64,000 bases of DNA from an uncultured Clostridia bacterium (GTDB lineage: Bacteria; Bacillota; Clostridia; TANB77; CAG-508). Of the stretch, positions 1 to 54,305 are shown one piece after another (positions within the stretch are counted from its first letter, which is position 1; each line of letters opens with the position of its first letter). The notes beneath the pieces were generated by a model. The model worked only from the letters and a program-made list of their open reading frames with translations, was not told the DNA's origin and ran no database searches. The stretch spans positions 116,334-180,333 of the forward strand of contig CAKMVZ010000003.1 in assembly GCA_928721915.1 (NCBI GenBank), read 5' to 3'. Made by a program: the position numbers and the translations under genes.

Positions 1-582
1 CTCTCCTGCAAATGTAGAAAGAGGTATAGGAGCTATTGCTGTGTACATATATAATTTAAAAAATCTTCCATAGACTGTTAATATCATAATAAAAGAAAGC
101 ACTGTTACAAATAAACTACCTAATATTGTAACTGCACCAAGTGGAATCTTATCCCAAAAACTACAAGCTTCTATTGCATAGAAAATGCCATCAGGTATTT
201 TTGCTATTTGAAATGCTCCATCTCTTGCAAAATATGCTGAACTTGCAACTCCTTGTACAATTCGTATAATTGCAGTTAATAATTCCATTCCATAAGTTAT
301 GATACCTTTTGCAATAGCAAATCTTATAAATAATTTTAATGCTTGTTCAGGTCTTTTTATTTCTGCAAAATTGCCGCAAGTTTTCATTACTCCAATTACA
401 AAAAATAATACCAATAAAGCTAATGCTATTGCTTGCATTGCTCCATTGATATTTACAATTACTTTCCATACACCACCTTCATTAAACATTTCAGGTGGCA
501 TTAAAAGTAAGCCAACGATTTCAGAAAATTTATTGTTCCATGTACTTACAGTATTGATTAAATTACTTGATATCCAACTCAA
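1..582 (-). CDS. VirB6/TrbL-like T4SS membrane protein (N-terminal part; gene runs off the window edge)
   Basis: Absent from the ORF track because there is no stop in the window. Hand translation of the minus strand is open from TTG at 582 (GGAGGTG 7 nt upstream) to nt 1: LSWISSNLINTVSTWNNKF...YTAIAPIPLSTFAGE. It has several hydrophobic helices and lies next to Maff2/T4CP genes. The + strand ORF 299-604 is its antisense shadow. Confidence 0.6.
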   Translation of the reverse strand, partial: MSWISSNLINTVSTWNNKFSEIVGLLLMPPEMFNEGGVWKVIVNINGAMQAIALALLVLFFVIGVMKTCGNFAEIKRPEQALKLFIRFAIAKGIITYGMELLTAIIRIVQGVASSAYFARDGAFQIAKIPDGIFYAIEACSFWDKIPLGAVTILGSLFVTVLSFIMILTVYGRFFKLYMYTAIAPIPLSTFAGE

Positions 583-600
583 ATTTAAGCACCTCCTATC

Positions 601-900
601 CTAATTTTTTCTCGAATATGCTATATATTCTTTTTGCTTTTTATCTCTAAAGTTGGCTACTTTATCATTTTTTAATTCAGGATATTTGTTTTGTATTTTT
701 CTTCTAGCTCTTGTAATTGATTCAAAACTTAATCCTTTTTTGCTTACATTTGTCATTGCTTCTTCAAATCTTTTTCCAACTTCATACGGATATACTTTTG
801 TTATATATTTCAAAATAAGATAAATATCATTATTTCTTGAATATTTATCTTGTCTTAATATTTGTTCTACAACTTCTTCAACTTTGATTAGTTTTCGCAT
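601..900 (-). CDS. small conserved-looking hypothetical protein of the transfer region
   Basis: 99-aa ORF, tightly packed with its neighbours; its stop abuts the RBS of the next gene. No motif recognised. Confidence 0.5.
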   Translation of the reverse strand: MRKLIKVEEVVEQILRQDKYSRNNDIYLILKYITKVYPYEVGKRFEEAMTNVSKKGLSFESITRARRKIQNKYPELKNDKVANFRDKKQKEYIAYSRKN

Positions 901-921
901 TTTAAATCATTCCTTTCAAGG

Positions 922-947
922 CAAAAAAAGTAGGATTGCTCCTACTT
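922..947 (-). terminator. Rho-independent terminator after the Maff2 gene
   Basis: Minus strand AAGTAGGA-gcaa-TCCTACTT followed by a T7 run. Confidence 0.7.
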
Positions 948-951
948 GTTC

Positions 952-1302
952 TTAACCACCTGTTATTAAAGATAATATTTCTTTTGCAAATGTTATAACT
1001 GTTCCCCCTGCAAGTGTCATTATTCCATTTGCTCTTTGTGTTGGATCATGAGATTTTAAACTCATACCTACTTGCACAATACCAAATCCTAAAATAATCA
1101 TTCCAACAGCTCTAATTAAACCAAATATAAAATTTGATAAATTATTTACAACTGTTATTGGTTCATCTGCTGCAAAAACATTTGATGCTTGTATAAAGTT
1201 TAATGCTACTACATAGCCTATAATAAAAGCTCCTCTTGTTAAAATTTTCTTTCCTAAATTTTCTTTTTTACTTTCTTTATTTAAAACTAATTCTTTATTC
1301 AT
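952..1302 (-). CDS. Maff2-family small membrane protein (pilin-like T4SS component of Firmicutes elements)
   Basis: 116 aa with an N-terminal signal/TM and a second glycine-rich TM (GMIILGFGIVQVGMSL). Typical position beside the coupling protein. Confidence 0.5.
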   Translation of the reverse strand: MNKELVLNKESKKENLGKKILTRGAFIIGYVVALNFIQASNVFAADEPITVVNNLSNFIFGLIRAVGMIILGFGIVQVGMSLKSHDPTQRANGIMTLAGGTVITFAKEILSLITGG

Positions 1303-1338
1303 AATACTTAAATCCTTTCTTAATTTATTTTTTGCAAC

Positions 1339-1383
1339 AAAAAAAGGGCTATAATTAATTAAGAAACTTAATAACTATAGCCC
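1339..1383 (-). terminator. Rho-independent terminator after the T4CP gene
   Basis: Long imperfect hairpin GGGCTATAgTTAtTAAG...CTTAATTAATTATAGCCC, then a T run on the minus strand. Confidence 0.65.
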
Positions 1384-1403
1384 TTAAAATGTTATTATAT
1401 TAT

Positions 1404-3233
1404 TTACTCTTTATTTTTATCATCTGTGTTATTTTCTAATTCTTCAATATAGTTGTCCAATTCTTCATCTGATAATAATTCATAATCTGATTCTGTAATT
1501 GGTATATCTATAATCTTTTCATTAGTTAAATCTATATCTTCAAGATTAAATGATATACTTCCAGTCGAATTATCAACATTACCATGAATATATGCTTTTG
1601 CTCCACCTATTGGTGTTCTACTTGCATTTGGATGTTCTTTTAAATTATATTTTAAATCTTTCACTGGTCTTTCTCCTCTTATAAATAATAATGCAAATTG
1701 ATTATCTAACATTCTTACTTCATCAGGTGTCAATAATTCTCTTCCTGCCATTTGGTCATTTGTCGAATAACTACCATGACTTCCATAAGAACGACCATAA
1801 GTATTTGTATCTATAGTAGCTTTACCTAATAATTCACTTACATACTTATGTGTACTCTGCTCATTGCCACCTAAATAAAGAAATTCATCACAATTTCCAA
1901 CAATACTTTCCCATTGTTTTTCAAATAATGCTTTTAATTGCGCTAAATTTTGCAGAATTATACTAACAGATACTTCTCTACTTCTCATTACTGATAAGAT
2001 TTTATCAAAATCATCAGGTAGAGAAACATTAGCAAACTCGTCCATTACAAAATGTACATGAACTGGTAAGCTACCTCCATATTTATAATCTGCAATGTAA
2101 AATAATTGTTGAAATAGTTGAGTATATAATATACTTACTAAAAAATTGAATGATGTATCATTATCAGGTATTAAAGCAAATAAAGCAACTTTCTTTTCTC
2201 CGAGAGATGGCAAGTTTAATTCATCAGTTTGTGTCATTGCAGCCAAACTATCTAAATTAAATTTTTCAAGTCTTGAAGCTAATGTTACTTGAATGGATTT
2301 TAATGTTTTAGCTGAACCTGAATGATATGCTCTATAATATTTTAAAGCAATATGTTCAGGATTTTTTGTTTCTAACCTATTAAATAACATATCTAAAGGA
2401 GAAACATAATCATCATCATCTTCTTTAACATCTCCAGCTCTTAATAACTCCATAACCATTACAAAGTTTTGTTCATCTTCAGGTGCTTCATATTTTAGGT
2501 AAAATATTAATGCTAATAAAAGCATAGATGCTGCCGTATCCCAAAAAGGATCTTGACTTTGACTTCCTTTAGGAGTAGTAGATTTAAAAAGATTTGTTAC
2601 TAATTTTTGTACATCATTATCTGTTTTGAGATATACAAAAGGATTGTAACAATGAGATTTATTCATATTTATTAAATCTAAAACCTTAATTTCATATCCT
2701 TCATCTTCTAATAAATAACCTGTATCTCTTAATATTTCTCCTTTAGGATCTAAAATTACATAAGAAGTATTAGCTTGTAACACATTCGGCTTACAATAGC
2801 TAAAAGTTTTACCTGCACCGCTTCCACCTACAACTAAAACATTGACATTTCTTCTGTGCTTTTTTCCATTTAAACCTAATGCAACATTTTTAGTTAATAA
2901 CTTATTCATATTTGCATTCTGTTTATATTTCTTATTAACTTGTCCTGCATTACCCCATTCAGCAGAACCATATTCTTCTTTTCTTCTGTAATTTTTTCTT
3001 GTAGATTCATAAATCATTATTCCTAAAATATATATAATTAAAAAAATAAGAATAGTTCTTATACTATTCTCACAAAAACTTATATTTAACATATTATTAA
3101 ATATATTATTAGAATTTTTTATTATTTCAATTAATCCACCACTTAAATAAGGTGCTATTAGTAAAGCAAACCATATTATAGGAATAATGCCTATAATATA
3201 TATGATTTTTCTTGTTCTTTTATCATCTTGCAC
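1404..3233 (-). CDS. VirD4/TraG-type conjugative coupling protein (T4CP)
   Basis: 609 aa with N-terminal TM helices, Walker A VVGGSGAGKT and Walker B-like HFVMDEFAN. Confidence 0.85.
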   Translation of the reverse strand: MQDDKRTRKIIYIIGIIPIIWFALLIAPYLSGGLIEIIKNSNNIFNNMLNISFCENSIRTILIFLIIYILGIMIYESTRKNYRRKEEYGSAEWGNAGQVNKKYKQNANMNKLLTKNVALGLNGKKHRRNVNVLVVGGSGAGKTFSYCKPNVLQANTSYVILDPKGEILRDTGYLLEDEGYEIKVLDLINMNKSHCYNPFVYLKTDNDVQKLVTNLFKSTTPKGSQSQDPFWDTAASMLLLALIFYLKYEAPEDEQNFVMVMELLRAGDVKEDDDDYVSPLDMLFNRLETKNPEHIALKYYRAYHSGSAKTLKSIQVTLASRLEKFNLDSLAAMTQTDELNLPSLGEKKVALFALIPDNDTSFNFLVSILYTQLFQQLFYIADYKYGGSLPVHVHFVMDEFANVSLPDDFDKILSVMRSREVSVSIILQNLAQLKALFEKQWESIVGNCDEFLYLGGNEQSTHKYVSELLGKATIDTNTYGRSYGSHGSYSTNDQMAGRELLTPDEVRMLDNQFALLFIRGERPVKDLKYNLKEHPNASRTPIGGAKAYIHGNVDNSTGSISFNLEDIDLTNEKIIDIPITESDYELLSDEELDNYIEELENNTDDKNKE

Positions 3234-3417
3234 TTATACAATGCTCCTTTTTAAATCTTTCTTTTTCGATTGGGGCTTGTAGTAATTTCATCAATAATTC
3301 ATCAATGATTTCTACATCGATATTTTCTTTTAATTTTTGATTTCTAAATTCATTAAGAGCATTTACAAGTAACTTATAATCATATATATCCATTTTTAAT
3401 ACTCTTGTTTCTTCCAA
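3223..3417 (-). CDS. small helical protein, paralog of the micro-ORF at 30718-30864
   Basis: 64-aa ORF. The core YDYKLLVNALNEFRNQKLKENIDVEIIDELLMKLL aligns at about 50% identity with the 48-aa ORF at 30718-30864. Confidence 0.5.
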   Translation of the reverse strand: MEETRVLKMDIYDYKLLVNALNEFRNQKLKENIDVEIIDELLMKLLQAPIEKERFKKEHCISAR

Positions 3418-3431
3418 TGTACTATACCTCC

Positions 3432-4187
3432 CTATTTAGTTTCTTTTACTTTTGGTGCTTTTACTTTCGGAGCAACCTCTTTTACATCTTTTACTAAAGA
3501 TTTCTTTTCCGCTTCTTTTCTAACCTCTTCTTTAATTTCTTTTAATTCTTTTCTAACAGATTTTTTTCTATTTAAAGGTTTAGCTACCCCTTCGGCTTTG
3601 TTTGAGGAAAGCTCTGACTGAGGGTTTTTTACAGTCATTGCTAAATTGAAATTTTCCACTTGATTATTCTCCTTTTGTATAGGTTTTTGTGATAGTACAT
3701 CTTCTAACATTTCTTCTTTAGTTTTTGTTTGTACACCTTTTTCATGACTTCTTTGCTCTTTTCTATCATCAATAGATTTCTGAACGATAGTTTGAACTTG
3801 AGCAGTATCAATTGTAATAAGTTTAAATCTTTCTACTATTCTATTTATTCTTGGAGCATCTTCATCACGAACCATAATATCTACCATACCATCAATGTTT
3901 TTATGCTTTCTATCTACTAAAGCTGTATATAGTATTCCATATCTTTTTGCTTCTTGAGTAAATGTTTTTAAGTCTTCTTGTTTTACAGAAAATATTTTAA
4001 GTGATTTTCCTGATTTAAGCATGTTATTTATTCTAGTCTTTCCTTTTGTTTGCTTTTGGTCTTTCATTATTGTATAAAGTAATGCAGCAATATTTTTTGC
4101 TCCACTACCAGTTAATTTAGCTATTACTTCAAAACCTTCTAAACTTAATCTAACAACTTGTTCTGCTGAATCTCCTGATACACTCAT
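3432..4187 (-). CDS. PcfB/DUF3801-like relaxosome accessory protein
   Basis: The N-terminal region SAEQVVRLSLEGFEVIAKLTGSGAKNIAALLYTI is typical of PcfB-family proteins. K/E-rich tail. Lies between the relaxase and T4CP genes. Confidence 0.6.
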   Translation of the reverse strand: MSVSGDSAEQVVRLSLEGFEVIAKLTGSGAKNIAALLYTIMKDQKQTKGKTRINNMLKSGKSLKIFSVKQEDLKTFTQEAKRYGILYTALVDRKHKNIDGMVDIMVRDEDAPRINRIVERFKLITIDTAQVQTIVQKSIDDRKEQRSHEKGVQTKTKEEMLEDVLSQKPIQKENNQVENFNLAMTVKNPQSELSSNKAEGVAKPLNRKKSVRKELKEIKEEVRKEAEKKSLVKDVKEVAPKVKAPKVKETK

Positions 4188-5557
4188 TATTTATTTTTCT
4201 CCTTTCTTTTTGATTTTTCATTTTCTTTATTCTTCTCTTGTTCTTCTTGATAGTCTAATTCTATTAAATTATCTTCTATCTTCGGTAATCTTGTTTCTAT
4301 ATCTTTCGCTAGTTGCACCTCCTTCCTTAAATTATCTATTTTTTTATTGAGAACACCAATATCAATAGCTATTGATTTTCTCTCATTATCATCTTTGCTT
4401 AATCTTCTTTTAGTCCATAATCTTTCTCTGTCGGAGCTTAATGTTCCGATTTTAAATAAATGTTCATTTTCAAAATCTTTTAAATCTTCTAAAGTTTTTA
4501 TTTTATAATTTGAAAGTAGTTTTGCTTCTTCAGATAATTCATTCATTCTTGCAACATCTGCTCTTATAGATAAAGGTAATCTTTGTTGTGGTATATCAGG
4601 AAATACTTTAAGAAGATAGCAATAATGATAATATAAAGCAATAAATCCTTTTGCTTTGGCTCTTTTATGCCTTTTAGCAAAAGGATATTTAACTTTTCTA
4701 TAATAATCTTCTATAAAAGGAACTCTTACTGATTCCTCTTCTAAAATTCTTCTTTTAATACTCTCTATGGAATATTCTTCTCCGAATCTTCTTTCAATTC
4801 TAATATTACGATTATAATTCTTATGTCTTAAACTAATTTTATTTGCTCTATATATAATTTCATAATCTAATTTTTTCATTAAGTATTCAAAATCATTATA
4901 AGAATATGCTTGTCTAATTGCTAAATCTAAATCTCTTTTTGCTTTTATTTCATAATTATTTGTATATTTAGATTTCTCATAAAAATTAGCATAATTTAAA
5001 TGAGTTTTCTTTGTTGGTTTTTCTTCTATAACACTTAACCCATATTCTTTACATAGCTCATCTGACATGTGTCTTATTCTTGAATAACTTGTATGATTAT
5101 CGTAATATTTATAGCCATCTTTAAAAGATACAGAATTAATTACAAAATGATTATGAAGACATTTAGTATTAAGATGTGTTGTAACGACTACCTGAAATCT
5201 ATCTCCCCAAATTTCATGAGCTAATTCAACTCCAATTTTATGTGCAATTTCTGGAGTAGTTTCTCCTGGTGCAAAAGATTGATACCCATGAAATGCTAAT
5301 ATCTTATCATTTTTCTTATAATACAATTTTGTATCTTGCATTTCTTCATAAGCAGATTGTGGTTCACAATTAATTCCTGTAACAAAATATTCTTCCTCTG
5401 TTTTATCTGAATTTCTTGCATAGTCAATTACATCTTTTAAATCTCTAGCATACATTCCATTTGGAGACATTTGTATTTTTGTTTTCTCTTTATTAGTTGC
5501 ATAATCTACAACATGATCTACTCGTTTTATAACTGCCCAAATTTTTGTTACTGCCAA
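4187..5557 (-). CDS. relaxase/mobilisation nuclease (MobA/VirD2-type)
   Basis: 456 aa with the histidine triad HLNTKCLHNH. Immediately downstream of mobC, with a coiled-coil K/E-rich C-terminus. Confidence 0.8.
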   Translation of the reverse strand: MAVTKIWAVIKRVDHVVDYATNKEKTKIQMSPNGMYARDLKDVIDYARNSDKTEEEYFVTGINCEPQSAYEEMQDTKLYYKKNDKILAFHGYQSFAPGETTPEIAHKIGVELAHEIWGDRFQVVVTTHLNTKCLHNHFVINSVSFKDGYKYYDNHTSYSRIRHMSDELCKEYGLSVIEEKPTKKTHLNYANFYEKSKYTNNYEIKAKRDLDLAIRQAYSYNDFEYLMKKLDYEIIYRANKISLRHKNYNRNIRIERRFGEEYSIESIKRRILEEESVRVPFIEDYYRKVKYPFAKRHKRAKAKGFIALYYHYCYLLKVFPDIPQQRLPLSIRADVARMNELSEEAKLLSNYKIKTLEDLKDFENEHLFKIGTLSSDRERLWTKRRLSKDDNERKSIAIDIGVLNKKIDNLRKEVQLAKDIETRLPKIEDNLIELDYQEEQEKNKENEKSKRKEKNK

Positions 5558-5568
5558 TTAAACACCTC

Positions 5569-5880
5569 CTATAAAAATTTACTTTTAACTTGTCTTGAAA
5601 ATTCTAACCATTCATTTGCAAGTTCTTTATAATAACTTTTATCTATACTATTAGTTTTATTTGCTCTATATGCAATTTGATTAAGATTAACCCCAATTTT
5701 AGAAAGCTCTTTCATAACTTCATAAAATTCATAACCAGGTTTTTCTTTAATCTCCTTTTCTAATATTAAATTTCTAATTACATCTGATTTCGTCATTTTA
5801 GATTTTAAAGACATTTCTTCTAATTTGTCATATTCTATGTCATTAAATCTAATATGAAACTCTAAATTTCGTTCTCGCAT
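5569..5880 (-). CDS. mobC: MobC-family relaxosome protein
   Basis: 103 aa with the motif IGVNLNQIAYRAN typical of MobC. Lies directly upstream of the relaxase. Confidence 0.75.
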   Translation of the reverse strand: MRERNLEFHIRFNDIEYDKLEEMSLKSKMTKSDVIRNLILEKEIKEKPGYEFYEVMKELSKIGVNLNQIAYRANKTNSIDKSYYKELANEWLEFSRQVKSKFL

Positions 5881-5962: not shown

Positions 5963-6014
5963 AGTGCTTGCTAGGACAAGAAATCAATCTTTTTTTAAAA
6001 AACAGCCCCATTTT

Positions 6015-7007
6015 TTATTCTCTTATCATACTTTTTTTAATCTTATATGTTTTATATTTTTCTACATCTTGTCTATTTTTTAACCCTAAAGAATAACATA
6101 AATAGTCATTTATATCTTTACCATAAGGAGCAGGTATATCATATATATCGTATTTACTATCAAGAGCAAAAATGAATGCTTTTGTTGCATCTCTTCCTGC
6201 TCTATCATTATCAAAATGAATAACTATTTGATTTATACTAGGATTATTTTGTAAAAAATTAAGTACCGTTAATGGTACTTTACTTTGTTCTATTTTGTTT
6301 GCAGGTTGATATACACCTGCTAGTGCTATAAGATTTTGATTATGCCAATCATAACCCTTTATTTTTAATAATGTTGCATAAGATAATAAATCTATTGAAC
6401 TTTCAAATAAATGAACAGATTCCTTATTCGTATCTGATAACAACCTAAAAGAGAACTCTTTTGAACTACCTTTTGCATCTCTCATAATTCTATTTACTCC
6501 AGTGGATCTACATCCTGCATATTTAATATTATGATTATTATCGTAACCTATAAAAACAACATTATTTGTTTTTTGTTCCTGATATAAGAGTTTTTTATCA
6601 ATACAATATTTTATTATATCTTCATCTATACCACGATTTTTTAGGTACTCAATTGCAATTTTATTATCATTATTTCTAATAGGAATAACTATTGTTTTAG
6701 TTGTTTTAATCTCTGTTTTAGGTACTTGTTTTAACTCAATATTTTGATTATTTAGTATAATTCTTGCAGCTTCTTGAAGACTATAACCTTCTACTTTTAT
6801 TAAGTAATCAAGAGCTGTTTTTCCACCTTCATTAGTTGAAAATCTATGCCATAAATTATTACTTATAATCAAACTATCATGTGTTTTAGTTGAATAAGTA
6901 TCTTCTGTTATTTTTACTAATTCACTTGGATTAAAGTTCATTAGGTAAGTTAATAAGTCCATTTCTTTTGCTTTCTTTAACAATTCAGGTGGTATATAAT
7001 CTCTCAT
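6015..7007 (-). CDS. DUF3991/Toprim-domain protein (TraC-like conjugative primase)
   Basis: 330 aa. Toprim acidic motifs HLFESSIDLLS and HFDNDRAGRDA. Confidence 0.7.
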   Translation of the reverse strand: MRDYIPPELLKKAKEMDLLTYLMNFNPSELVKITEDTYSTKTHDSLIISNNLWHRFSTNEGGKTALDYLIKVEGYSLQEAARIILNNQNIELKQVPKTEIKTTKTIVIPIRNNDNKIAIEYLKNRGIDEDIIKYCIDKKLLYQEQKTNNVVFIGYDNNHNIKYAGCRSTGVNRIMRDAKGSSKEFSFRLLSDTNKESVHLFESSIDLLSYATLLKIKGYDWHNQNLIALAGVYQPANKIEQSKVPLTVLNFLQNNPSINQIVIHFDNDRAGRDATKAFIFALDSKYDIYDIPAPYGKDINDYLCYSLGLKNRQDVEKYKTYKIKKSMIRE

Positions 7008-10404: not shown

Positions 10405-11610
10405 TTAGTTTTCTAAGAATTGTTTATTATTTTTGCACATTGAATATAACATTCTTAGAATTTTAGTTGAACAAGCAGTTAGGCTTTCATAATAATGTTT
10501 GCCTTCTGCTTTTTTGTTTTGGTAATAAATATATACTGGATGTTCTGGATAATTTGAAGCACCTAATTTTACTACCATTTGACTGCAATTAAACAATATA
10601 TATCTTGCATATTTGTTTCCTCTTTTTGATATTGCTCCTTTTACATTTATACTTTTTCCAGACTGTTTGATTGTTGGATCAAGTCCACAGAAAGCTATTA
10701 CTTCTTTTGGACTATTAAATCTTGTTATATCTCCTAATTCTCCAAGTATTTCAGCTGTTAATATTTCTCCAATCCCATAAAATGAATTGATTATTTCATA
10801 ATATTGAGATTGTTTTGCTGTTTCTATCATTTTACTTCTCAATTCATTTATAATATTATTGTTATTTTGCACTATTTGAGCCATTTTTGAAAGATTATTT
10901 ACATCGGAGTGTTCTTTATCAACTCCTGGATAAGAGTTAGCTGAAACTGTTTTTATTGTTGTGGCAAGTTTTTTATAAAAGTTTAAGTTTCTTCCATTTG
11001 TTTTGTATAAATTGTTATACAATGCATCAATTCTTTTTTCTTTTACTATTTCTGCGTGTGGAAATTCTTTAATAAAATTTAATGCTGTATCATCATAAAT
11101 TCTTGTTGATTTAAAGATTTTCTCTAGTTCTGGAAAACATATATTTATCAATCTTTTGTATCTATTTTTACAACTTACATTGTTCTGTAACAAATAAAAA
11201 TATTGTCTTGTCATTGCTTTTAAATTAGCATATAAGTCTTTTTTAGATAAATCGTGATATTTTACTTCGTTTACAAAAAACAACTTTGCTAACCTATAAC
11301 AATCTTCTTTATCTGTTTTTGTTTTTCTAATAGTATCATAATTATTTTTTGTCGTTAAACTATTGATAACTAAAGTATTAAATCCATTTTCTTTAAAGTA
11401 TCTTTCTACTGGTAAATGGTATGTACCTGTTGATTCCATAAATACTGTTAAGTTTTCTGGGTTAATTTCTTTAATTTCTGCTTTTACTTTTTCAAAATCT
11501 TCTAAATTGTGCTTTATCTCTTTTGTGTCAATAAGTATTTCTCCATCATTATTCATAAGCATTATCATACTCTTATTTTTAGCAACATCTACACTTAATA
11601 CTGTTTTCAA
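10405..11610 (-). CDS. IS110-family DEDD transposase/recombinase
   Basis: 401 aa. N-terminal VLSVDVAKNKS...FMESTGTYH, and C-terminal GIGEILTAEILGELGDITRF...CGLDPTIKQSGKS. TTG start with an AGGTG RBS. Confidence 0.85.
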   Translation of the reverse strand: MKTVLSVDVAKNKSMIMLMNNDGEILIDTKEIKHNLEDFEKVKAEIKEINPENLTVFMESTGTYHLPVERYFKENGFNTLVINSLTTKNNYDTIRKTKTDKEDCYRLAKLFFVNEVKYHDLSKKDLYANLKAMTRQYFYLLQNNVSCKNRYKRLINICFPELEKIFKSTRIYDDTALNFIKEFPHAEIVKEKRIDALYNNLYKTNGRNLNFYKKLATTIKTVSANSYPGVDKEHSDVNNLSKMAQIVQNNNNIINELRSKMIETAKQSQYYEIINSFYGIGEILTAEILGELGDITRFNSPKEVIAFCGLDPTIKQSGKSINVKGAISKRGNKYARYILFNCSQMVVKLGASNYPEHPVYIYYQNKKAEGKHYYESLTACSTKILRMLYSMCKNNKQFLEN

Positions 11611-14003: not shown

Positions 14004-17000
14004 TTAGCAACGCTCTGGAGAGTTCTTGTTTGGAGATTTCTCCTGTTTTTCTTCTTGTTCATCTCCTAATAATTCTTTATCTTGTTCAATTAGTTTTAAC
14101 TCAATATTCAATGCTTCTAGTCTTTTTTCTTTATCTTTTAATTCTTGTTCTTGAGGAAATTCTTTTTGAACTTCTATTTTAGCATTTTCTAATTGATGAT
14201 TAAGATTATCAATCCAATCTCTTTCGCCTGGAATATCTTTTTCTATACTTTCTAAACAATTATTGATTCTTGTTATATTTCCAAAAGTATCTGTTCCAAG
14301 TTCAACCATATAATGATATTTATTTTTTAAAGTTAATTGAAAATTTTTTGAAAAGCTATTAAATGCTAATTTCATTTTAAATCCACGATATTCTCCTATT
14401 TCTTTTTCTTCCATACTCTTTAATTCTTTACAACATTCAAGTAATTTTTTACCTGCATTTTCTTTATCAGAATATGTTTGATTATCAAATTTCATTGGAG
14501 AAAAACCATCTGCATTCGGTTTAGTATATTCTTGTAATTTCACTATATCTTCTTCCATTGCAGCAATTCTTTCATTTGATTTTGCAATTTCTTGAGGAAA
14601 ATACTTTAATGTCTTATCTTGCAAATCATATTTTTGACTCATGAAATTTTGTTTTAATAGCTTAAGTTTTGCAACCTCACTATCTAAATTTGTTTTTTCT
14701 AGTATTTTAGGATTACCAGTAGCTAGTGCTTTTATTTCTCCATAAGATAATGCCTTTTCATCAATATCTTCCATAGTTCTCATTGGAGTCTTACTTGTCA
14801 TTATTTGAGATATAAATTTTTGCTTTTGTTCTACTAATTGGTATAAATAAGCATCAAAAGTTCCTTCTGTTACATAAGAATAAACATGTACTTTTTCATT
14901 TTGATTTCCTTGTCTTATCATTCTCCCATTTCGTTGAGTTAAATCACTTGGTCTCCAGGGACAATCTAAATGATGTAAAGCAATTAATCTATCTTGTACA
15001 TTTGTTCCTGCACCCATTTTTTGAGTAGAGCCTATTAAAACTCTAACATCTCCAGTTCTAACTTTACTAAATAACTCTTTCTTTTTAGCTTCACTATCTG
15101 CTTCATGAATAAATGCAATTTCATTATCAGGAATACCTTTTTCAATTAATTTCTTTTTAATATCATTATAAGCATCTAAAAAGCCATCTTGCTCATATCC
15201 TTTATTATCTTTAGGAGTAGATAAATCGCAGAATACTAATTGAGTAAGTTTATTATCCTGTCCTTTAGTATAAATATCATATATATTATCTACACAAGTT
15301 TTTACTTTACTTGTATCTGCATCTTCTAGAAGCGGATTGATTAATCTTTGATCTAATGCTAATTTTCTACCTTCATTTGTTATTTTTAGCATATTATCAA
15401 TGTTTGCATCTACAGAACCATTTCTAATTCGTTCTGCTCTTTCTCCTAATTCTTTAACCATATCTTTTTGTATTTCACTTGGTTTTACTACAATATTATG
15501 ATTTTCTACTTCAGGAGTTGGAAGATTTAATGTATCTGCTGTTTGAATGTCTGCTACCTCTTTGAATAAAGCTATAAGTTCAGGTAAATTATGAAATTTT
15601 GCAAATCTCGTTTTACTTCTATAACCTGTACCTTCAGGAGCAAGTTCAATTGCAGTAACAGTTTCTCCAAAAGTAGATGCCCAATTATCAAAGTGTTCTA
15701 GTCCTTGATTTCTTAATCCATCATATTGTAAATACCTTTGCATTGTATATAACTCTACCATTGAATTACTTACTGGAGTTCCTGTAGCAAAAACTGTACC
15801 TTTTCCATTAGTAATTTCATCTAAATATCTACATTTCATGAAGAGGTCAGAACTTTTTTGTGCTTCCGTTTGAGCTATACCTCCAACATTACGCATTTTA
15901 GTATATAAAAACAAATTCTTATAGTTATGTGCTTCATCGACAAATAATTTATCAATACCTAATTCTTCAAAAGTTACTACATCATCTTTTCTATCTTGAG
16001 TATTTAATTTTTCTAACTTATTTTCTAGTATTCTACGGCTTTTCTCTAATTGTTTAATTGTAAAGTTTTCTCCTCGTTCTCTTTTAGCGATATCTATACC
16101 TTTTAAAATATCAGATATTTGTTGTTCTAATTGTTCCCTTTGCCTTTCTATGCTCATTGGTATTTTTTCAAATTGAGAATGTCCTATAATTACTGCATCA
16201 TAATCTCCTGTTGCAATTCTTGAACAAAACTTCTTTCTATTTTTAGTTTCAAAGTCTTTTTTCGTTGCAACTAATATATTAGCACTTGGATATAATTGTA
16301 AAAATTCACTTGCAAATTGCTCTATGATATGATTTGGCACAACAAATAATGATTTATTACATAAACCTAATCTTTTACTTTCCATTGCAGAAGCAACCAT
16401 TTCAAAGGTTTTTCCTGCACCTACTTCATGAGCTAACAATACATTATTACCATATAAAACATGAGCTATAGCATTTACTTGATGAGGTCGAAGTTTTATT
16501 TCAGGATTCATTCCAACAAAGTTTAAATGTGAGCCATCATACTCTCTAGGTCTTATTGAATTAAATCTATCATTATAGAGTCTAGTTAGTTTTTCCCTTC
16601 TTTCAGGTTCTTGCCATACCCAATCTAAAAAAGCTTGTTTAATACTATCTTGTTTAGCCTGTGCGATTGCAGTCTCTTTTTTATTTAATACTCTTTGCTT
16701 TCTGCCTTCTTCATCTATAATAGTATCAAATATCTTTACATCTTTTAAGTTAAGAGTTTGCTCTATTATTTTATAAGCATTTATTCTTCCTGTACCATAA
16801 GTAGAATATGCTTTTACATTACTTCTATCAGAACTTTTATTATCTATATACCATTCAGATGTAAAATCATTATATCTAACCTTTATATCATATCTATTAT
16901 AGGATGGTGTATCTAATAATTCGAACATAAATTGTCTTACAATATCTGTTGGTATCCATATAGCACCCAATTTTATACCTATCTCACTTGCTGACAAGTC

Positions 17001-20000
17001 TTTTGGCACTACTTCTTTTAGCCTGTCCACATTTATTTGATATGAAGAATCATCTAATAAAGCCTGTTCTGCTATTTTTAGTTTTTCTCTAACATTTCCT
17101 GACAAATACTCATCTGCTGCAACATATTTATCTTCATTTGGTATTTTAAATATAATACCTTCTAAATCTTTTATAATATCTTCTTTAGATTTATCAGTTA
17201 ATTCAGACATATAATCTAAATCTACAACAGCTTTTTCAGATAAAGAAAGTATTAATGCTTCTTCAGATGTATCTACTTTATCAACTTGCTTATATGCTTT
17301 AATAGTTCTTTTAGTAAATATATCAGCTTTTCCTTTAAAGTTACCTTCTCCATCTAATTTTTCAAGAGAACACAATAAAAAATAACTGCTATCATTTTGA
17401 AAAGCAGTTGCATTAGCTCTTGAATTTATTAAGCCATATTCTTTTGTAAATCTATCATATAAATCATTTAATTTTGTTTGAGATACATGTATTTCTTCAT
17501 CAGAATAATCTTCCATTTGCAAGTCAATTAATTCTCTTACTTGTTCTCTTAATCTTATCATTCCTTTTATTCTATTTTCACTTGTTAGAGGAATATCTTG
17601 AGGATGCATTTTGCTATTTTCTCTAAAGTATATTTTTCCATCTACAATAGTATAAGAAAAGTTTTTAACATTTGGATCTGCAGGAATAGATTTGTCTGTA
17701 TCTTCATATTCATTTTCTACCTGATAGTCTTTAATAGTTGCATTTAAGTTAGGAATTGCTTGTTCTAAAGCTTGTTCCAATGTTCTATCATCATAAGGTT
17801 TACAAGTAGAATCATAGCCAAATTGAGTAGATGTCATTTCCATATTACCTAAAATCATGTTAGGATTATCTACAAAGTATTTATTCATTGTAATATTGTT
17901 TTCATCTTTATCTAAATAAACCCAATCAGGCATTATATCTGTCATATTATCTCTTTTTTGTAAAAAGATAATATCTGATGTTACTTTTGTACCTGCATTT
18001 TTAGTAAATGTATTTTCAGGAAGTCTTATAGCACCTATTAAATTTGCTCTTTGTGCGATATATTTTCTAACTTCAGGATTTTCTTTATCCATTGTTCCTT
18101 TTGAAGTTATAAATGCAATTATTCCTCCAGGTCTAACTTTATCAAGAGTTTTTGCAAAGAAATAATCATGTATCATAAATTTATTTTTATCATATCTTTT
18201 ATCTAATACAGGAAAATCTCCAAAAGGTACATTACCTATTGCAACATCATAAAAAGAATCAGGAAGATTTGTTTTTTCATATCCCATAACTTTTATATCT
18301 GCTTTTTGATATAATTGTTTTGCTATTCTTCCTGTTATGCTATCTAATTCAACACCATACAATTTAGAGTTTTGCATTTCTTGTGGTAATAATCCAAAGA
18401 AATTGCCTATACCACAAGATGGCTCTAAAATATTTGCATCTTGTAAGCCCATATTAGATAATGCTTGATACATTGATTTAATTACAATTGGTGGTGTATA
18501 AAATGCAGTCAAAGTCGAAGCTCTTGCATTGCTATATTCTTCATCTGTAAGCAATGATTTTAATTCCATATATTCTTCATGCCAATTGTCTTTTGTTTCA
18601 TCAAATACATCAGGAAGTCCACCCCAGCCAACATATTGAGATAACACTTCTTGCTCTTCTTTATTAGCAAGTCTATTTTCATTCTCTAACTTATTTAAAA
18701 GTTTTATTGCTTCAATATTTCTTAATACTTTTTGTCTTGGAGTTCCTTCTCCTAAATTATCATTATCAATATGATAATTTATTTTTTCTTGTTGATTTTC
18801 CTGTTGTTTATAATATTCTTCTCTATCAAGTGGTTTTCCGTTTTCTTCTCTTGCTTTAAATAAATCTGTTACTTTTTGAGCTTGTTTTATATCTTCTTGT
18901 CTGCTTAATACTTCATCAAATTCTTCTTGTGATATTTCTTTAAGATTTTCATTTGCAAGTTCTTCAATATCTGTAAATTCTGCAAGTCTTTTTCTAATCC
19001 TCATTAAAGTTTCATTTTCTTCATTATCAGAGTATTCTAAAAGTCCACCATCTTGTTCAAATCCAAATTTATTGTATATCTCATAGTAATAGCCTTCTTC
19101 ATTTGTATGGAAGTGAAATATATTCCCATCATTTAGTCTATAATTCTTGTCTAAATTTGAAATATCTTCTTCACTATCTTCTAAAGTATTAGCTGAATTA
19201 TTTCCTTGAGCTCTTTCAAACATCCACTTTTGATGAGGATATTCATTTTGTTCCCATTCAAGATATTTATCTACTTCGTCTATACTTAAATATCTATCAG
19301 TCATAATAAGTTCTTTAATTCTTTTTTCTACTTTTGCCCAACTTAACAAGATTTCTTTGCTATCAGCTTTATAACCATTATTTAGTGTTATACCTTTAGC
19401 ATTAAAATCAATTCCTATATCTTCAAAACCTTTTATAGAAGAAGCTCCACCAATACCATATTCATATTTTAAGAATTTTATATTTTCTTCAGATGACATA
19501 CTTTGCATAAACTGCTTATAAATTCTAAATTTACCATTTTCAAAATGACTGCCTTCTGTTAAAGCATTATCAATCATTTCTTGGGTAAAAGTAAAGACAG
19601 AGCTTTGCTCTGCCTCTAAATCATTTATAAGTTCTTTTTGCTGTTCCTCTGTTCTATTATTAGTAAATAAGTTTAATTGTAAATTAACTCCTGCATCACT
19701 ATTTCTTGTGCTTGATTCTTGAAGTTGTTCATGTATCCCACCCAAGTCATTTGGTCTTGAGCTTTCATTTGTTCGTCCACTTTGTTTTGTTTCGCCAATT
19801 GATTGATTATTAGTTCCATTCTGTTCAAAGCTGATTTCTCTATTTCCACTAGATGTTGTGTAAGAGTTCCTTTCATCATTAGTTCTGTGTATAGTCCCCT
19901 CTTGTTTTCCTTGATATATTTCTCCCTCATTCTTGCGAATGTCCCTAGTTGAACTTTCTTTTGTTCTGGCATCACTAGGTCTGGTATCTGATAATCTCCC

Positions 20001-20870
20001 TCTTGGTGGTATGTTATTTGTTCCCTCATTTCCATTACCCCTTTCAATTTGATTTTCATTTTCTTTAATTTCATGATACACTTCATTTTTATTATTAACA
20101 AATGTGTGAGATTTATTTTTTTCTTTCTTTAAATCTAATACTGTAGTATAAATTTCATGTAATTCTACTTCTGCAATATCACTTGTTGCAATACCTAATC
20201 TTGATATAACTTCAGTTGTATTAAAATTTACAATATTTCTAAAATCTTCTACATCAAAATATTCTTTTGGATCAATACCACATCTTTTTAATACCATATA
20301 AGAAATAGAATTTTTAATCATATTTTTGAAATATAATTCAAGATTTAGCTCATCTAATTCTTCAAGATAACTATTATTTACTATTGAAGTAAAGTCAGAA
20401 TAATAATCTTGAAAATTATCTTCTACAAGATTTGTTACAGAATTAATAATACTATCTGCTAGATTATTTTTATTTTCTAAATCTCCAAATCTATTTTCTA
20501 ATGTTTCTATTATTTCATTTTGCATATCATCTTCTACTTGCCAAACATAAACATTCCTATTAAATTTATCGTAAGTATCAGATATATCAAAAATATGTCT
20601 TAATCCTTGAACACCATTATCATTTGTAATTAATGCTATACCTTTAGAACCTTTTTTAATCCATCTATGAAGTCTTTTATTCCAAGTATCTATATCAGTA
20701 CAGACTGTTGCATCAGGTCGTTGAGCATAAATCAATATTTGCTCATTAAAAGAATATTTGTAATTATTAGAAGCGGTATCTAGAAAAGACAACCAATTTT
20801 CAGGAGTATTTGTAATTTCTTTTGTTACATTATTTGATAACTCTGTTATCAGTTGCATTTTATTAGGCAT
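14004..20870 (-). CDS. polyvalent protein: ArdC-like N domain + linker + N6-adenine DNA methyltransferase + SNF2/DEAD helicase + C-terminal coiled coil
   Basis: 2288 aa. N-terminal YSFNEQILIYAQRPDATVCTDIDTWNKRLHRWIKKGSKGIALI (ArdC-N-like). MTase motif I ILEPSCGIGNFFG and motif IV GNVPFGD. Helicase motifs AHEVGAGKT, VDEAHNYKN and QRNGRMIRQG. Confidence 0.85.
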   Translation of the reverse strand: MPNKMQLITELSNNVTKEITNTPENWLSFLDTASNNYKYSFNEQILIYAQRPDATVCTDIDTWNKRLHRWIKKGSKGIALITNDNGVQGLRHIFDISDTYDKFNRNVYVWQVEDDMQNEIIETLENRFGDLENKNNLADSIINSVTNLVEDNFQDYYSDFTSIVNNSYLEELDELNLELYFKNMIKNSISYMVLKRCGIDPKEYFDVEDFRNIVNFNTTEVISRLGIATSDIAEVELHEIYTTVLDLKKEKNKSHTFVNNKNEVYHEIKENENQIERGNGNEGTNNIPPRGRLSDTRPSDARTKESSTRDIRKNEGEIYQGKQEGTIHRTNDERNSYTTSSGNREISFEQNGTNNQSIGETKQSGRTNESSRPNDLGGIHEQLQESSTRNSDAGVNLQLNLFTNNRTEEQQKELINDLEAEQSSVFTFTQEMIDNALTEGSHFENGKFRIYKQFMQSMSSEENIKFLKYEYGIGGASSIKGFEDIGIDFNAKGITLNNGYKADSKEILLSWAKVEKRIKELIMTDRYLSIDEVDKYLEWEQNEYPHQKWMFERAQGNNSANTLEDSEEDISNLDKNYRLNDGNIFHFHTNEEGYYYEIYNKFGFEQDGGLLEYSDNEENETLMRIRKRLAEFTDIEELANENLKEISQEEFDEVLSRQEDIKQAQKVTDLFKAREENGKPLDREEYYKQQENQQEKINYHIDNDNLGEGTPRQKVLRNIEAIKLLNKLENENRLANKEEQEVLSQYVGWGGLPDVFDETKDNWHEEYMELKSLLTDEEYSNARASTLTAFYTPPIVIKSMYQALSNMGLQDANILEPSCGIGNFFGLLPQEMQNSKLYGVELDSITGRIAKQLYQKADIKVMGYEKTNLPDSFYDVAIGNVPFGDFPVLDKRYDKNKFMIHDYFFAKTLDKVRPGGIIAFITSKGTMDKENPEVRKYIAQRANLIGAIRLPENTFTKNAGTKVTSDIIFLQKRDNMTDIMPDWVYLDKDENNITMNKYFVDNPNMILGNMEMTSTQFGYDSTCKPYDDRTLEQALEQAIPNLNATIKDYQVENEYEDTDKSIPADPNVKNFSYTIVDGKIYFRENSKMHPQDIPLTSENRIKGMIRLREQVRELIDLQMEDYSDEEIHVSQTKLNDLYDRFTKEYGLINSRANATAFQNDSSYFLLCSLEKLDGEGNFKGKADIFTKRTIKAYKQVDKVDTSEEALILSLSEKAVVDLDYMSELTDKSKEDIIKDLEGIIFKIPNEDKYVAADEYLSGNVREKLKIAEQALLDDSSYQINVDRLKEVVPKDLSASEIGIKLGAIWIPTDIVRQFMFELLDTPSYNRYDIKVRYNDFTSEWYIDNKSSDRSNVKAYSTYGTGRINAYKIIEQTLNLKDVKIFDTIIDEEGRKQRVLNKKETAIAQAKQDSIKQAFLDWVWQEPERREKLTRLYNDRFNSIRPREYDGSHLNFVGMNPEIKLRPHQVNAIAHVLYGNNVLLAHEVGAGKTFEMVASAMESKRLGLCNKSLFVVPNHIIEQFASEFLQLYPSANILVATKKDFETKNRKKFCSRIATGDYDAVIIGHSQFEKIPMSIERQREQLEQQISDILKGIDIAKRERGENFTIKQLEKSRRILENKLEKLNTQDRKDDVVTFEELGIDKLFVDEAHNYKNLFLYTKMRNVGGIAQTEAQKSSDLFMKCRYLDEITNGKGTVFATGTPVSNSMVELYTMQRYLQYDGLRNQGLEHFDNWASTFGETVTAIELAPEGTGYRSKTRFAKFHNLPELIALFKEVADIQTADTLNLPTPEVENHNIVVKPSEIQKDMVKELGERAERIRNGSVDANIDNMLKITNEGRKLALDQRLINPLLEDADTSKVKTCVDNIYDIYTKGQDNKLTQLVFCDLSTPKDNKGYEQDGFLDAYNDIKKKLIEKGIPDNEIAFIHEADSEAKKKELFSKVRTGDVRVLIGSTQKMGAGTNVQDRLIALHHLDCPWRPSDLTQRNGRMIRQGNQNEKVHVYSYVTEGTFDAYLYQLVEQKQKFISQIMTSKTPMRTMEDIDEKALSYGEIKALATGNPKILEKTNLDSEVAKLKLLKQNFMSQKYDLQDKTLKYFPQEIAKSNERIAAMEEDIVKLQEYTKPNADGFSPMKFDNQTYSDKENAGKKLLECCKELKSMEEKEIGEYRGFKMKLAFNSFSKNFQLTLKNKYHYMVELGTDTFGNITRINNCLESIEKDIPGERDWIDNLNHQLENAKIEVQKEFPQEQELKDKEKRLEALNIELKLIEQDKELLGDEQEEKQEKSPNKNSPERC
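19673..20029 (-). CDS. TnpV-like protein encoded in the +1 frame inside the polyvalent gene
   Basis: ORF-track ORF 19673-20101 is on the same strand, shifted +1. The Met at 20029 is preceded by AAAGGGG with 8-nt spacing. The 118-aa product MREQITYHQEGDYQIPDLVMPEQ...DQMTWVGYMNNFKNQAQEIVMQELIYN matches my recollection of the TnpV family over its full length. Confidence 0.5.
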   Translation of the reverse strand: MREQITYHQEGDYQIPDLVMPEQKKVQLGTFARMREKYIKENKRGLYTELMMKGTLTQHLVEIEKSALNRMELIINQLAKQNKVDEQMKAQDQMTWVGYMNNFKNQAQEIVMQELIYN

Positions 20871-20873
20871 CTG

Positions 20874-21212
20874 CTACTCCTCCTTATTTTGTTTTCTTTT
20901 AAATGTTTCCTCTCTTAATTCTTCAAAATAATCTCTGCTAGGCATATAATTAACAAAATCCAATAACTGGTTAAGCAAAAACTTAATTTCTATTGGAAAT
21001 AAACTAACAATTGCTTTTTCTTCAGTGTCTTGTTCTCTTTTATCTAATACAGATGCATACTTTACTAATTTTTCTTTTAGTTCAGTAGCTCTTGTACTTT
21101 TTTCTTCATCATTTCTTCTTTCGTTTAGTGATAATACCTCACATAATTTGTTATATTCTTCTTTATTTAAAAATAATTTAGTTGGTTGTATTTTTTCTTT
21201 ATTATTGTTCAT
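20874..21212 (-). CDS. hypothetical protein
   Basis: 112-aa charged ORF; its stop lies 3 nt before the polyvalent gene start. Confidence 0.45.
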   Translation of the reverse strand: MNNNKEKIQPTKLFLNKEEYNKLCEVLSLNERRNDEEKSTRATELKEKLVKYASVLDKREQDTEEKAIVSLFPIEIKFLLNQLLDFVNYMPSRDYFEELREETFKRKQNKEE

Positions 21213-21438
21213 TATTATTTTCAGTCCTTTCTATAATATTTAAATCTTCATTAAAATAATCTAAAGGATTACCAGATTTTATACATTTTCTTAAAAATAA
21301 TATATTTTGAAAATCGACATTATCTATTATTCCTTCAAGATCTTCTAATTGAAGTTTAGTAACATCTTTTGAGTTACTCTTTTTTATCATTCTTAATTTG
21401 TTATATGTTTCTAATCTTAAATTCCTTTTTCTAGGCAT
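21202..21438 (-). CDS. hypothetical protein
   Basis: 78-aa ORF overlapping the next gene by 11 nt. Confidence 0.4.
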   Translation of the reverse strand: MPRKRNLRLETYNKLRMIKKSNSKDVTKLQLEDLEGIIDNVDFQNILFLRKCIKSGNPLDYFNEDLNIIERTENNNEQ

Positions 21439-54168: not shown

Positions 54169-54305
54169 ACTGCTATTCCTCCATTTCTGCTTTTTGGTTG
54201 CTTGGTGTACTTTAATTAGTGTATAATTAGACACCAAATGCATAAATTTAAAGACACCTTTATATTTTACAATCTATAGAAGAAAAAGTCAACATAATTC
54301 GTATA

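Follow-up and report, generated by a model that had tools for sequence, protein, structure and literature searches.

A tnpV gene nested in the +1 frame of a giant polyvalent protein gene: a probable dual-coding region conserved among mobile elements of Bacillota

Can a single stretch of AT-rich bacterial DNA encode two proteins on the same strand, and which of the two reading frames does selection maintain? The question is raised by a tnpV-like open reading frame (ORF) that lies inside a 6.9-kb gene for a polyvalent protein in a stretch of 64,000 nucleotides (hereafter the window, ∼25% GC; positions 116,334 to 180,333 of contig CAKMVZ010000003.1) from an uncultured Clostridia bacterium. An earlier sequence-only reading of the window noticed this ORF, 429 nt long and in the +1 frame of the giant gene, and offered three explanations, namely that both frames are genuinely coding, that a tnpV gene was recruited as a linker, or that a frameshift yields an ArdC-N-TnpV product. 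The first is the option supported by the comparative data, through purifying selection on TnpV and openness of the giant frame, and the second is consistent with them, describing the same situation from the side of the giant gene. Positions 19673–20029 (minus strand) are very probably a true dual-coding region, specifying both a folded TnpV and a disordered linker of the polyvalent protein, which has 2288 amino acids (aa).

The giant ORF occupies positions 14004–20870 of the minus strand according to the ORF listing and its translation, and the 429-nt ORF (19673–20101, minus strand, 142 aa from a TTG codon) is wholly contained within it, as had been described. Its Met codon at 20029 lies 841 nt from the giant start and hence in the +1 frame of the giant ORF; from this codon the tnpV coding sequence (19673–20029, minus strand) specifies 118 aa and a stop, identical to the translation quoted in the earlier reading, and shares 357 nt with the giant gene. 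The earlier assignment to TnpV is borne out by a full-length match to the Pfam family TnpV (PF14198; E = 1.3e-39, 135.1 bits against a gathering score of 27, profile positions 1–111 of 111). The product also matches PHROG 24764, a family of no assigned function (E = 1e-34), and an NCBIfam scan of TnpV matched no model. Gene calls in public metagenomes include an identical 118-aa protein (P0001), a metagenome-assembled genome of an uncultured Clostridium (L007) encodes a TnpV with 92% identity, and near-identical elements are found in three ENA metagenomes (L003–L005). The stop-to-stop open run of the tnpV frame is 151 codons long, compared with 41 codons for the second-longest +1 run in the giant gene; in 2000 codon shuffles of the giant gene, the longest run averaged 57 codons and never exceeded 141, in agreement with the remark that such an open run is unusual in DNA this AT-rich. 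Over the tnpV bases, the giant frame reads EGTNNIPPRGRLSDTRPSD...NLQL, part of a stop-free stretch (giant codons 281–400; 19671–20030, minus strand) that has no Pfam match and had been rightly described as a low-complexity linker, with 14% hydrophobic and 83% disorder-promoting residues (37% and 58% in the N domain). A profile search of both translations thus finds TnpV in one frame and no Pfam family in the other.

Conservation of this arrangement was assessed in two separately collected sets of relatives. For the first set, plasmids were searched with TnpV by tblastn and genomes representing species were then scanned with the TnpV profile; it consists of 80 genome loci (the best 80 matches, a limit that applies to the stand-alone sample likewise) and the plasmid loci. 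In this set, tnpV lies within a giant ORF at 19 of the 80 genome loci, and also in plasmids of Streptococcus suis, Subdoligranulum, Monoglobus, and Cohnella and in metagenome loci. The register is constant, with TnpV in the +1 frame of the giant frame and ∼840 nt from the giant start, at GC contents of 26–56%. The remaining loci are ordinary stand-alone tnpV genes with their other frames closed and with no ArdC-N, methylase, or helicase homologue within 10 kb, and their products are 43–56% identical to the window TnpV with the same length and start. Because the first set had been chosen by TnpV similarity, the test was repeated from the giant N-terminal domain alone, collecting plasmids and metagenome contigs without reference to TnpV. 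Among the metagenome loci of this second set with enough downstream sequence, 72 of 74 have a full-length TnpV in the +1 frame (hidden Markov model positions 1–6 to 112–117) together with an open giant frame, so that the open +1 frame is indeed conserved across homologous polyvalent genes; these 72 loci represent 35 distinct TnpV sequences (<90% identity) at 27–58% GC, and the intact TnpV frames include ones at 27–30% GC. The other two (L154 and L164) carry a single indel in the overlap that shifts both frames, and may reflect assembly errors or pseudogenes. Homologues with an intact giant frame and stops in the TnpV frame, which would have spoken against the earlier reading, were not found among the relatives examined.

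Similarly, the plasmids of the second set include six homologues with an N domain 25–32% identical to that of the window gene (Clostridium botulinum, Clostridium perfringens, Listeria, Anaerococcus, Virgibacillus, and S. suis) and a seventh, from Cohnella, with an N domain 41% identical. In all seven, the longest alternative-frame open run (113–151 codons) is in the +1 frame and at the same place, beginning 688–763 nt from the giant start in the six with a measured offset. The Pfam TnpV cut-off of 27 bits is passed by six of the seven ORFs (106, 86, 82, 76.5, 54, and 29 bits), and the Anaerococcus ORF falls slightly below it (24.9 bits). In the Listeria plasmid, the TnpV ORF is kept in a giant gene that is cut short beside an IS6 transposase gene. 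Overall, two intact same-strand ORFs, one wholly inside the other, recur in more than 100 related elements from the two sets, at 26–58% GC and across several classes of Bacillota, and as judged from these comparisons the arrangement is conserved rather than accidental.

Which frame is under selection, a point that the earlier reading had left open, can be judged from the variability of codon positions. When 17 non-redundant nested loci are aligned by giant-frame codons, variability outside the overlap, N domain included, peaks at the third position (p-distance 0.59–0.72); in giant codons 281–395, the exact TnpV span, that position is the least variable (0.20–0.36) and the first position is the most variable (0.46–0.57). 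Read in the TnpV frame, the same sequences show the ordinary order of variability (3 > 1 > 2), with values of 0.38/0.28/0.53 at positions 1/2/3 in nested genes and 0.34/0.22/0.48 in stand-alone genes. Amino acid identity in the first set is 0.51 in the TnpV frame vs. 0.33 in the giant frame, the TnpV value being the higher one in each of the 136 pairs, and in the independent set 0.50 vs. 0.33 (595 of 595 pairs); a TnpV identity of 43–55% is kept between lineages whose giant-frame linker has fallen to 19–39%. Substitutions pooled from four close pairs and evaluated by OLGenie-style ratios point the same way: those synonymous for TnpV and nonsynonymous for the giant frame are in excess (84 observed vs. 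25.8 expected), and those nonsynonymous for TnpV and synonymous for the giant frame (11 vs. 32.3) or nonsynonymous in both frames (49 vs. 85.4) are depleted (chi-square, p = 1e-34). The resulting ratios (dNN/dSN ∼0.18 for TnpV and dNN/dNS ∼1.7 for the giant frame) indicate strong purifying selection on TnpV, which on these alignments is exerted at the amino acid level; no amino-acid-level constraint on the giant frame was detected within the overlap in the four close pairs.

The giant frame appears to be selected for something simpler. Across the overlap, it contains no stop in 25 nested genes, and the equivalent frame of stand-alone tnpV genes contains a mean of 17 stops (9–25 in the AT-rich ones). 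The cost is visible at TnpV third positions, where a T would put a stop (TAA, TAG, or TGA) into the giant frame: the frequency of T there falls from 0.43 in AT-rich stand-alone genes to 0.11–0.12 in AT-rich nested genes. The lack of stops together with the depletion of T therefore indicates that the giant frame is selected to stay open, and in the overlap its selection is, on this comparative evidence, for openness only. The same depletion explains the difference in third-position GC between the frames (0.21 in the giant frame vs. 0.42 in the TnpV frame across the overlap), the direction of which had been counted correctly by hand. As far as the alignments can tell, the nested arrangement is thus real, conserved, and under dual selection.

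The openness of the giant frame also bears on the idea that translation of the giant ORF does not extend through the overlap and that the true genes are those for a short ArdC-N protein, for TnpV, and for a methylase-helicase starting downstream. Gene calls of this kind exist, since RefSeq annotates the Monoglobus locus (L088) as a "TnpV protein" and an "SNF2-related protein" starting ∼1.9 kb downstream, and public gene calls on L003–L006 are alike. In the loci checked, however, no stop separates the parts and the ArdC-N part lacks its own stop codon, and separate genes would not account for a nested giant frame that is stop-free where AT-rich stand-alone genes have 9–25 stops, nor for the drop in T from 0.43 to 0.11; this division into three genes is accordingly considered very unlikely.

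How TnpV would be made from within the giant gene is suggested by the sequence around its start. A Shine-Dalgarno sequence, GAAAGGGG, lies inside the giant ORF at 20038–20045 (minus strand), 8 nt before the tnpV ATG at 20029–20027, which agrees with the AAAGGGG-type element noted previously; a second ATG is present at 20035, 2 nt beyond GAAAGGGG. In the first set, GAAAGGAG or GAAAGGGG occurs, mostly 6–10 nt upstream of the aligned TnpV ATG, in 24 of 24 nests with a placeable start, and in the second set, with its 35 distinct loci, nearly every locus has one or the other a few bases before the ATG. Translated in the giant frame, the element gives E-R-[GS]. The conserved ATG aligns with the start of stand-alone TnpVs, the bases between Shine-Dalgarno sequence and ATG are not conserved among nested loci, and in four relatives the TnpV frame has stops 0–3 codons before the ATG (TAG in L070, TGA in L071, TAG directly before the ATG in L080, and TGA TGA in L089). 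Together, the upstream stops, the conserved Shine-Dalgarno sequence and ATG, and the unconserved spacer favour internal initiation over a +1 frameshift fusion. A scan for promoters at 19500–21300 found 14 sites, compared with 11.3 ± 2.9 in shuffles, and a terminator scan of the same region found none; since promoter-like sites are at chance level, translation of TnpV from the mRNA of the giant gene is assumed. TnpV would then most likely be made by independent initiation at GAAAGGGG and the ATG at 20029 on the giant mRNA, and we infer that it is actually translated.

Several observations weigh against this account and need to be set beside it. In the window, no stop interrupts the TnpV frame over the 33 codons before the Met, so that at this locus alone a frameshift fusion retains some room. 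Under such an explanation, a programmed +1 shift near GAAAGGGG would give an ArdC-N-TnpV fusion ending at 19673 and no free TnpV, and the position of TnpV in the +1 frame of the giant frame would suit it, as would the ability of an upstream Shine-Dalgarno-like element to stimulate +1 shifting, as in prfB. Nested loci show no conserved frameshift or slippery motif near the Shine-Dalgarno sequence, and the unconserved spacer, the stops just upstream of the ATG in L070, L071, L080, and L089, and the retention of an ATG at canonical spacing in essentially all loci, at the residue where stand-alone TnpVs also start, do not fit a shift; the fused product proposed as a third option is therefore not supported, and a frameshift is judged very unlikely. 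The promoter-like sites at chance level also count on the negative side, and the evidence for expression of both products consists of sequence-level signals. This last point would also suit the TnpV frame being a silent fossil, that is, linker DNA captured from a tnpV gene, unexpressed, and kept open by chance or composition, and long alternative-frame ORFs are indeed common in GC-rich relatives. A fossil would not be expected, however, to stay intact and full-length in 72 of 74 loci chosen independently of it, those at 27–30% GC included, to show a dN/dS of ∼0.18, the flip in codon-position variability, and a conserved Shine-Dalgarno sequence and ATG, or to keep an identity of 43–55% where the linker fell to 19–39%; this explanation is strongly disfavoured and appears scarcely credible. 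Further points on the negative side are that no sequence or structural relative of TnpV with a known role was found (PDB, Foldseek, and PHROG), that nested TnpVs are not monophyletic with respect to stand-alone ones in a neighbour-joining tree of 59 TnpVs, which is unrooted and compositionally biased, and that an unfused intermediate (separate ArdC-N gene, tnpV, and methylase-helicase gene) was not found among the relatives collected.

The last two points concern the origin of the dual-coding region. TnpV is folded, has an ordinary composition, and is widespread as a stand-alone gene, and the giant reading of the same bases is low-complexity and unconstrained (nested giant-frame segments are 13% hydrophobic on average), which makes the engulfment of an existing tnpV gene the likelier route. 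A pre-existing tnpV would have been engulfed by a fusion reading frame when an upstream ArdC-N-like frame came to read through it in the −1 register into the methylase-helicase frame, and any stop-free, hydrophilic sequence would have served as the linker. The tnpV frame is thus probably the older one, and the earlier wording, by which TnpV was overprinted on the polyvalent gene, probably inverts the order of events, given a TnpV that is folded and exists on its own and a giant reading that is poorly conserved and disordered. The opposite history, in which TnpV was born de novo in the linker and later escaped as a stand-alone gene, would fit the paraphyly of nested TnpVs in the neighbour-joining tree and their divergence, which exceeds that of the stand-alone sample and extends to very distant types in C. 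botulinum and Listeria. However, the tree is short (118 aa), unrooted, and compositionally biased and is therefore judged unable to decide the direction, and the stand-alone sample consists of the 80 best matches. Of the two frames in a documented overlap, it is usually the disordered one that is younger, and here TnpV is modelled as a confident hairpin-plus-helix fold of ordinary composition and the giant-frame product is the low-complexity one; an origin within the linker is considered unlikely. A similar route to engulfment, by extension of an upstream frame past a downstream gene, has been proposed for embedded Rz1 (PMC6139136).

A separate observation was made at a stand-alone locus on plasmid pMM59_01 of Pusillibacter faecalis (L087), where an intact tnpV (5995–6339) with an GAAAGGAG Shine-Dalgarno sequence precedes genes for DUF3847 and a MobQ relaxase. 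The start of this tnpV coincides with the end of an unannotated 614-codon ORF in another frame, and the frame equivalent to the giant one has only a few stops; the locus may be a decayed nest or an ordinary setting in a mobilisable element. The motifs GRLS, DEMG..DEQ, and DLQL in its −1 frame were considered as traces of a decayed nest and rejected, as conserved TnpV residues force these motifs.

Nested and overlapping genes have been described in other systems, and the overlaps of phage phiX174 are among the closest analogues. Another is Rz/Rz1 of phage lambda, where a complete gene with its own start signals also lies in the +1 frame of a larger gene on the same strand and where Rz1 is also routinely missed by gene callers. 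Rz1 differs in being a ∼60-aa lipoprotein, a functional partner of Rz, and a gene of phages of Gram-negative hosts; the gene nested here encodes a 118-aa member of an independently existing family, its host gene is 6.9 kb long, and only a linker of the host protein is overlapped. The partnership of the two products is known for Rz and Rz1, whereas the present pair is known from its genes alone. Within Bacillota, comS of Bacillus subtilis encodes a small protein in a distinct frame of the very large multidomain gene srfAB, with which it is co-transcribed (PMC12915044). The resemblance lies in a small gene placed in a different frame inside a very large multidomain gene of a member of Bacillota. 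ComS has 46 aa and is not known outside close relatives of B. subtilis, whereas the TnpV nest encodes 118 aa and is conserved over Clostridia, Bacilli, and Tissierellia on mobile elements. The stand-alone TnpVs of Tn4451/Tn4453 and the PF14198 proteins of MOBQ2 integrative and mobilizable elements belong to the same family and have the same length and start, but their genes stand alone beside serine recombinase or MobQ relaxase genes (PMC3158075, PMC12084326); stand-alone tnpV genes further differ in the 9–25 stops of their −1 frame and in lacking an ArdC-N or methylase-helicase homologue within 10 kb. Full-text searches of one collection, which is not all of the literature, covered TnpV, PF14198, polyvalent proteins, and nested or overlapping genes and brought up no account of such an arrangement.

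What TnpV does is approached from its structure and its associations. An AlphaFold2 model from a 35-sequence alignment (pLDDT 90) has an N-terminal beta-hairpin and five helices, and neither a Foldseek search of this model against the PDB and viral predicted structures nor a PDB sequence search with TnpV found a meaningful relative. As there is no structural or sequence relative with a known role, a functional call for TnpV was rejected, and the "Xis-like" idea in the literature found no support in the PDB sequence or fold searches. TnpV has been described as the product of a gene of Tn4451-type mobilisable transposons with a postulated role in excision (PMC3158075), and of 24 MOBQ2 mobilisable elements of Faecalibacterium, 16 encode PF14198 proteins of unassigned function (PMC12084326). 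The usual setting, a stand-alone gene beside a serine recombinase or MobQ relaxase, is not seen in the window; it is typical rather than defining, and the embedded setting therefore has no bearing on homology. By association, TnpV is probably an accessory factor of DNA transfer or mobilisation. It is also conceivable, although doubtful, that TnpV is an obligate partner of the polyvalent protein, acting as a delivery adaptor or chaperone for the conjugation channel or as a relaxosome accessory, and that the embedding is adaptive.

The giant gene itself (14004–20870, minus strand) encodes, from ORF and Pfam evidence, an ArdC-N-like domain, the linker, an LPD16-like domain, an Eco57I-like methylase, an SNF2/ResIII helicase, and Helicase_C. 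Matches above the Pfam cut-offs were obtained for SNF2-rel_dom, ResIII, and Helicase_C, with the helicase core and Helicase_C at aa 1457–1988 (14907–16502, minus strand), and matches below the cut-offs for LPD16 (25.9 bits) and Eco57I (21.2 bits). The N-terminal domain (aa 1–275; 20046–20870, minus strand), previously called ArdC-like, keeps that name with a reservation: the Pfam ArdcN match is sub-threshold (17 bits vs. a cut-off of 22.6, E = 0.007), and RefSeq names support it, as many of the 126 plasmid records found by tblastn with this domain, Listeria included, are annotated "ArdC-like ssDNA-binding domain-containing protein." Full-length homologues of the giant protein occur in the 19 genome loci and in plasmids. 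In nucleotide searches with the giant gene, the sole match among plasmids is a 277-bp helicase stretch in Campylobacter plasmids and phages gave nothing, and the gene thus has no close annotated relative in these searches. Upstream of it lie genes for ParA, ParB, and a 1507-aa SpaA-repeat surface protein; downstream are Rce1-like proteins, an IS110-family transposase (DEDD_Tnp_IS110 and Transposase_20; 10405–11610, minus strand, between the Rce1-like genes and the next gene), an HTH regulator, a DUF3991/Toprim protein, a MobA/VirD2-type relaxase, DUF3801, and a type IV coupling protein. On its predicted domains and surroundings, the giant protein is a polyvalent protein, with several conflict-related domains in one polypeptide on a conjugative element. 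It shares the ArdC-N-like, LPD16-like, N6-methylase-like, and SNF2 helicase parts with the polyvalent methylase-helicase "dyad" proteins (Iyer et al., 2017), and like polyvalent proteins it is found in a conjugation module, here with ParAB, a SpaA adhesin, a relaxase, and a coupling protein. The paper that defined polyvalent proteins nowhere mentions TnpV, overlap, linker, or frameshift (PMC5512222), and the embedded gene falls outside their published description.

Three further observations concern giant genes or alternative frames elsewhere. In a near-identical metagenome element (L003, 13530–17630), the giant frame is broken near the helicase part and directly followed by a group II intron reverse transcriptase/maturase (RVT_1, Intron_maturas2), which suggests that an intron was inserted in or beside the giant gene. 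On plasmid pPEL1 of Campylobacter peloridis (L175, NZ_CP007767.1), a giant homologue with a methyltransferase/helicase coding sequence (1–5805) lacks the ArdC-N domain and opens with ∼200 aa of low complexity; its +1 frame is open for 166 codons at 68–565 in AT-rich DNA (second-longest run, 80 codons), and the 166-codon product has no TnpV or other Pfam match, so that this ORF may be another embedded gene or a chance one. In the window, one gene at 52735–54243 (minus strand) holds +1-frame open runs of 95, 83, and 65 codons, three of the longest other alternative-frame runs in the window, in the region where GC is highest (0.32).

The nested pair is handled inconsistently by current annotation. 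For S. suis, the RefSeq annotation lists the giant gene and omits TnpV; for Monoglobus, it lists a TnpV truncated at the 5' end together with an "SNF2-related protein" shortened by ∼3.1 kb; and for Cohnella, it lists TnpV with a spurious antisense ORF over the ArdC-N region. Public metagenome gene calls (L003–L006) are equally inconsistent. Inconsistently annotated loci include L088 (NZ_OY725736.1, 5154–12341), L089 (NZ_CP051681.1, 8956–15213), and L001 (NZ_CP135064.1, 8073–15341). What pipelines give for L001, L088, L089, and L003–L006 is either a missing tnpV or a shortened giant gene without its ArdC-N part, which probably biases domain censuses of anti-restriction polyvalent proteins.

Outside phages, long same-strand embedded genes with good support are uncommon in bacteria, and many proposals have been disputed. 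On the comparative evidence presented here, tnpV and its host gene are an unusually well-supported long overlapping pair for bacteria and a new variant of the embedded-gene theme. The pair offers a clean test case, in that one frame bears the amino acid constraint and the other pays the cost of having no stops, seen as the depletion of T at synonymous sites, and its origin is unusual in that it is probably the engulfment of an existing gene by a fusion frame rather than de novo overprinting. For TnpV, a family so far unstudied, the pair provides a connection to the plasmid module for early transfer and anti-restriction in tractable pathogens. Conjugative elements across Bacillota carry the arrangement, among them plasmids of Listeria, C. 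perfringens, C. botulinum, and S. suis. If TnpV were an obligate partner of the polyvalent protein, a reading that would cover these same plasmids, embedding would lock both genes together against the shuffling of modules in mobile elements and would tie TnpV synthesis to ribosome traffic on the giant mRNA, and the nest would represent a widespread, ancient, and functional dual-coding device in the conjugative elements of Bacillota.

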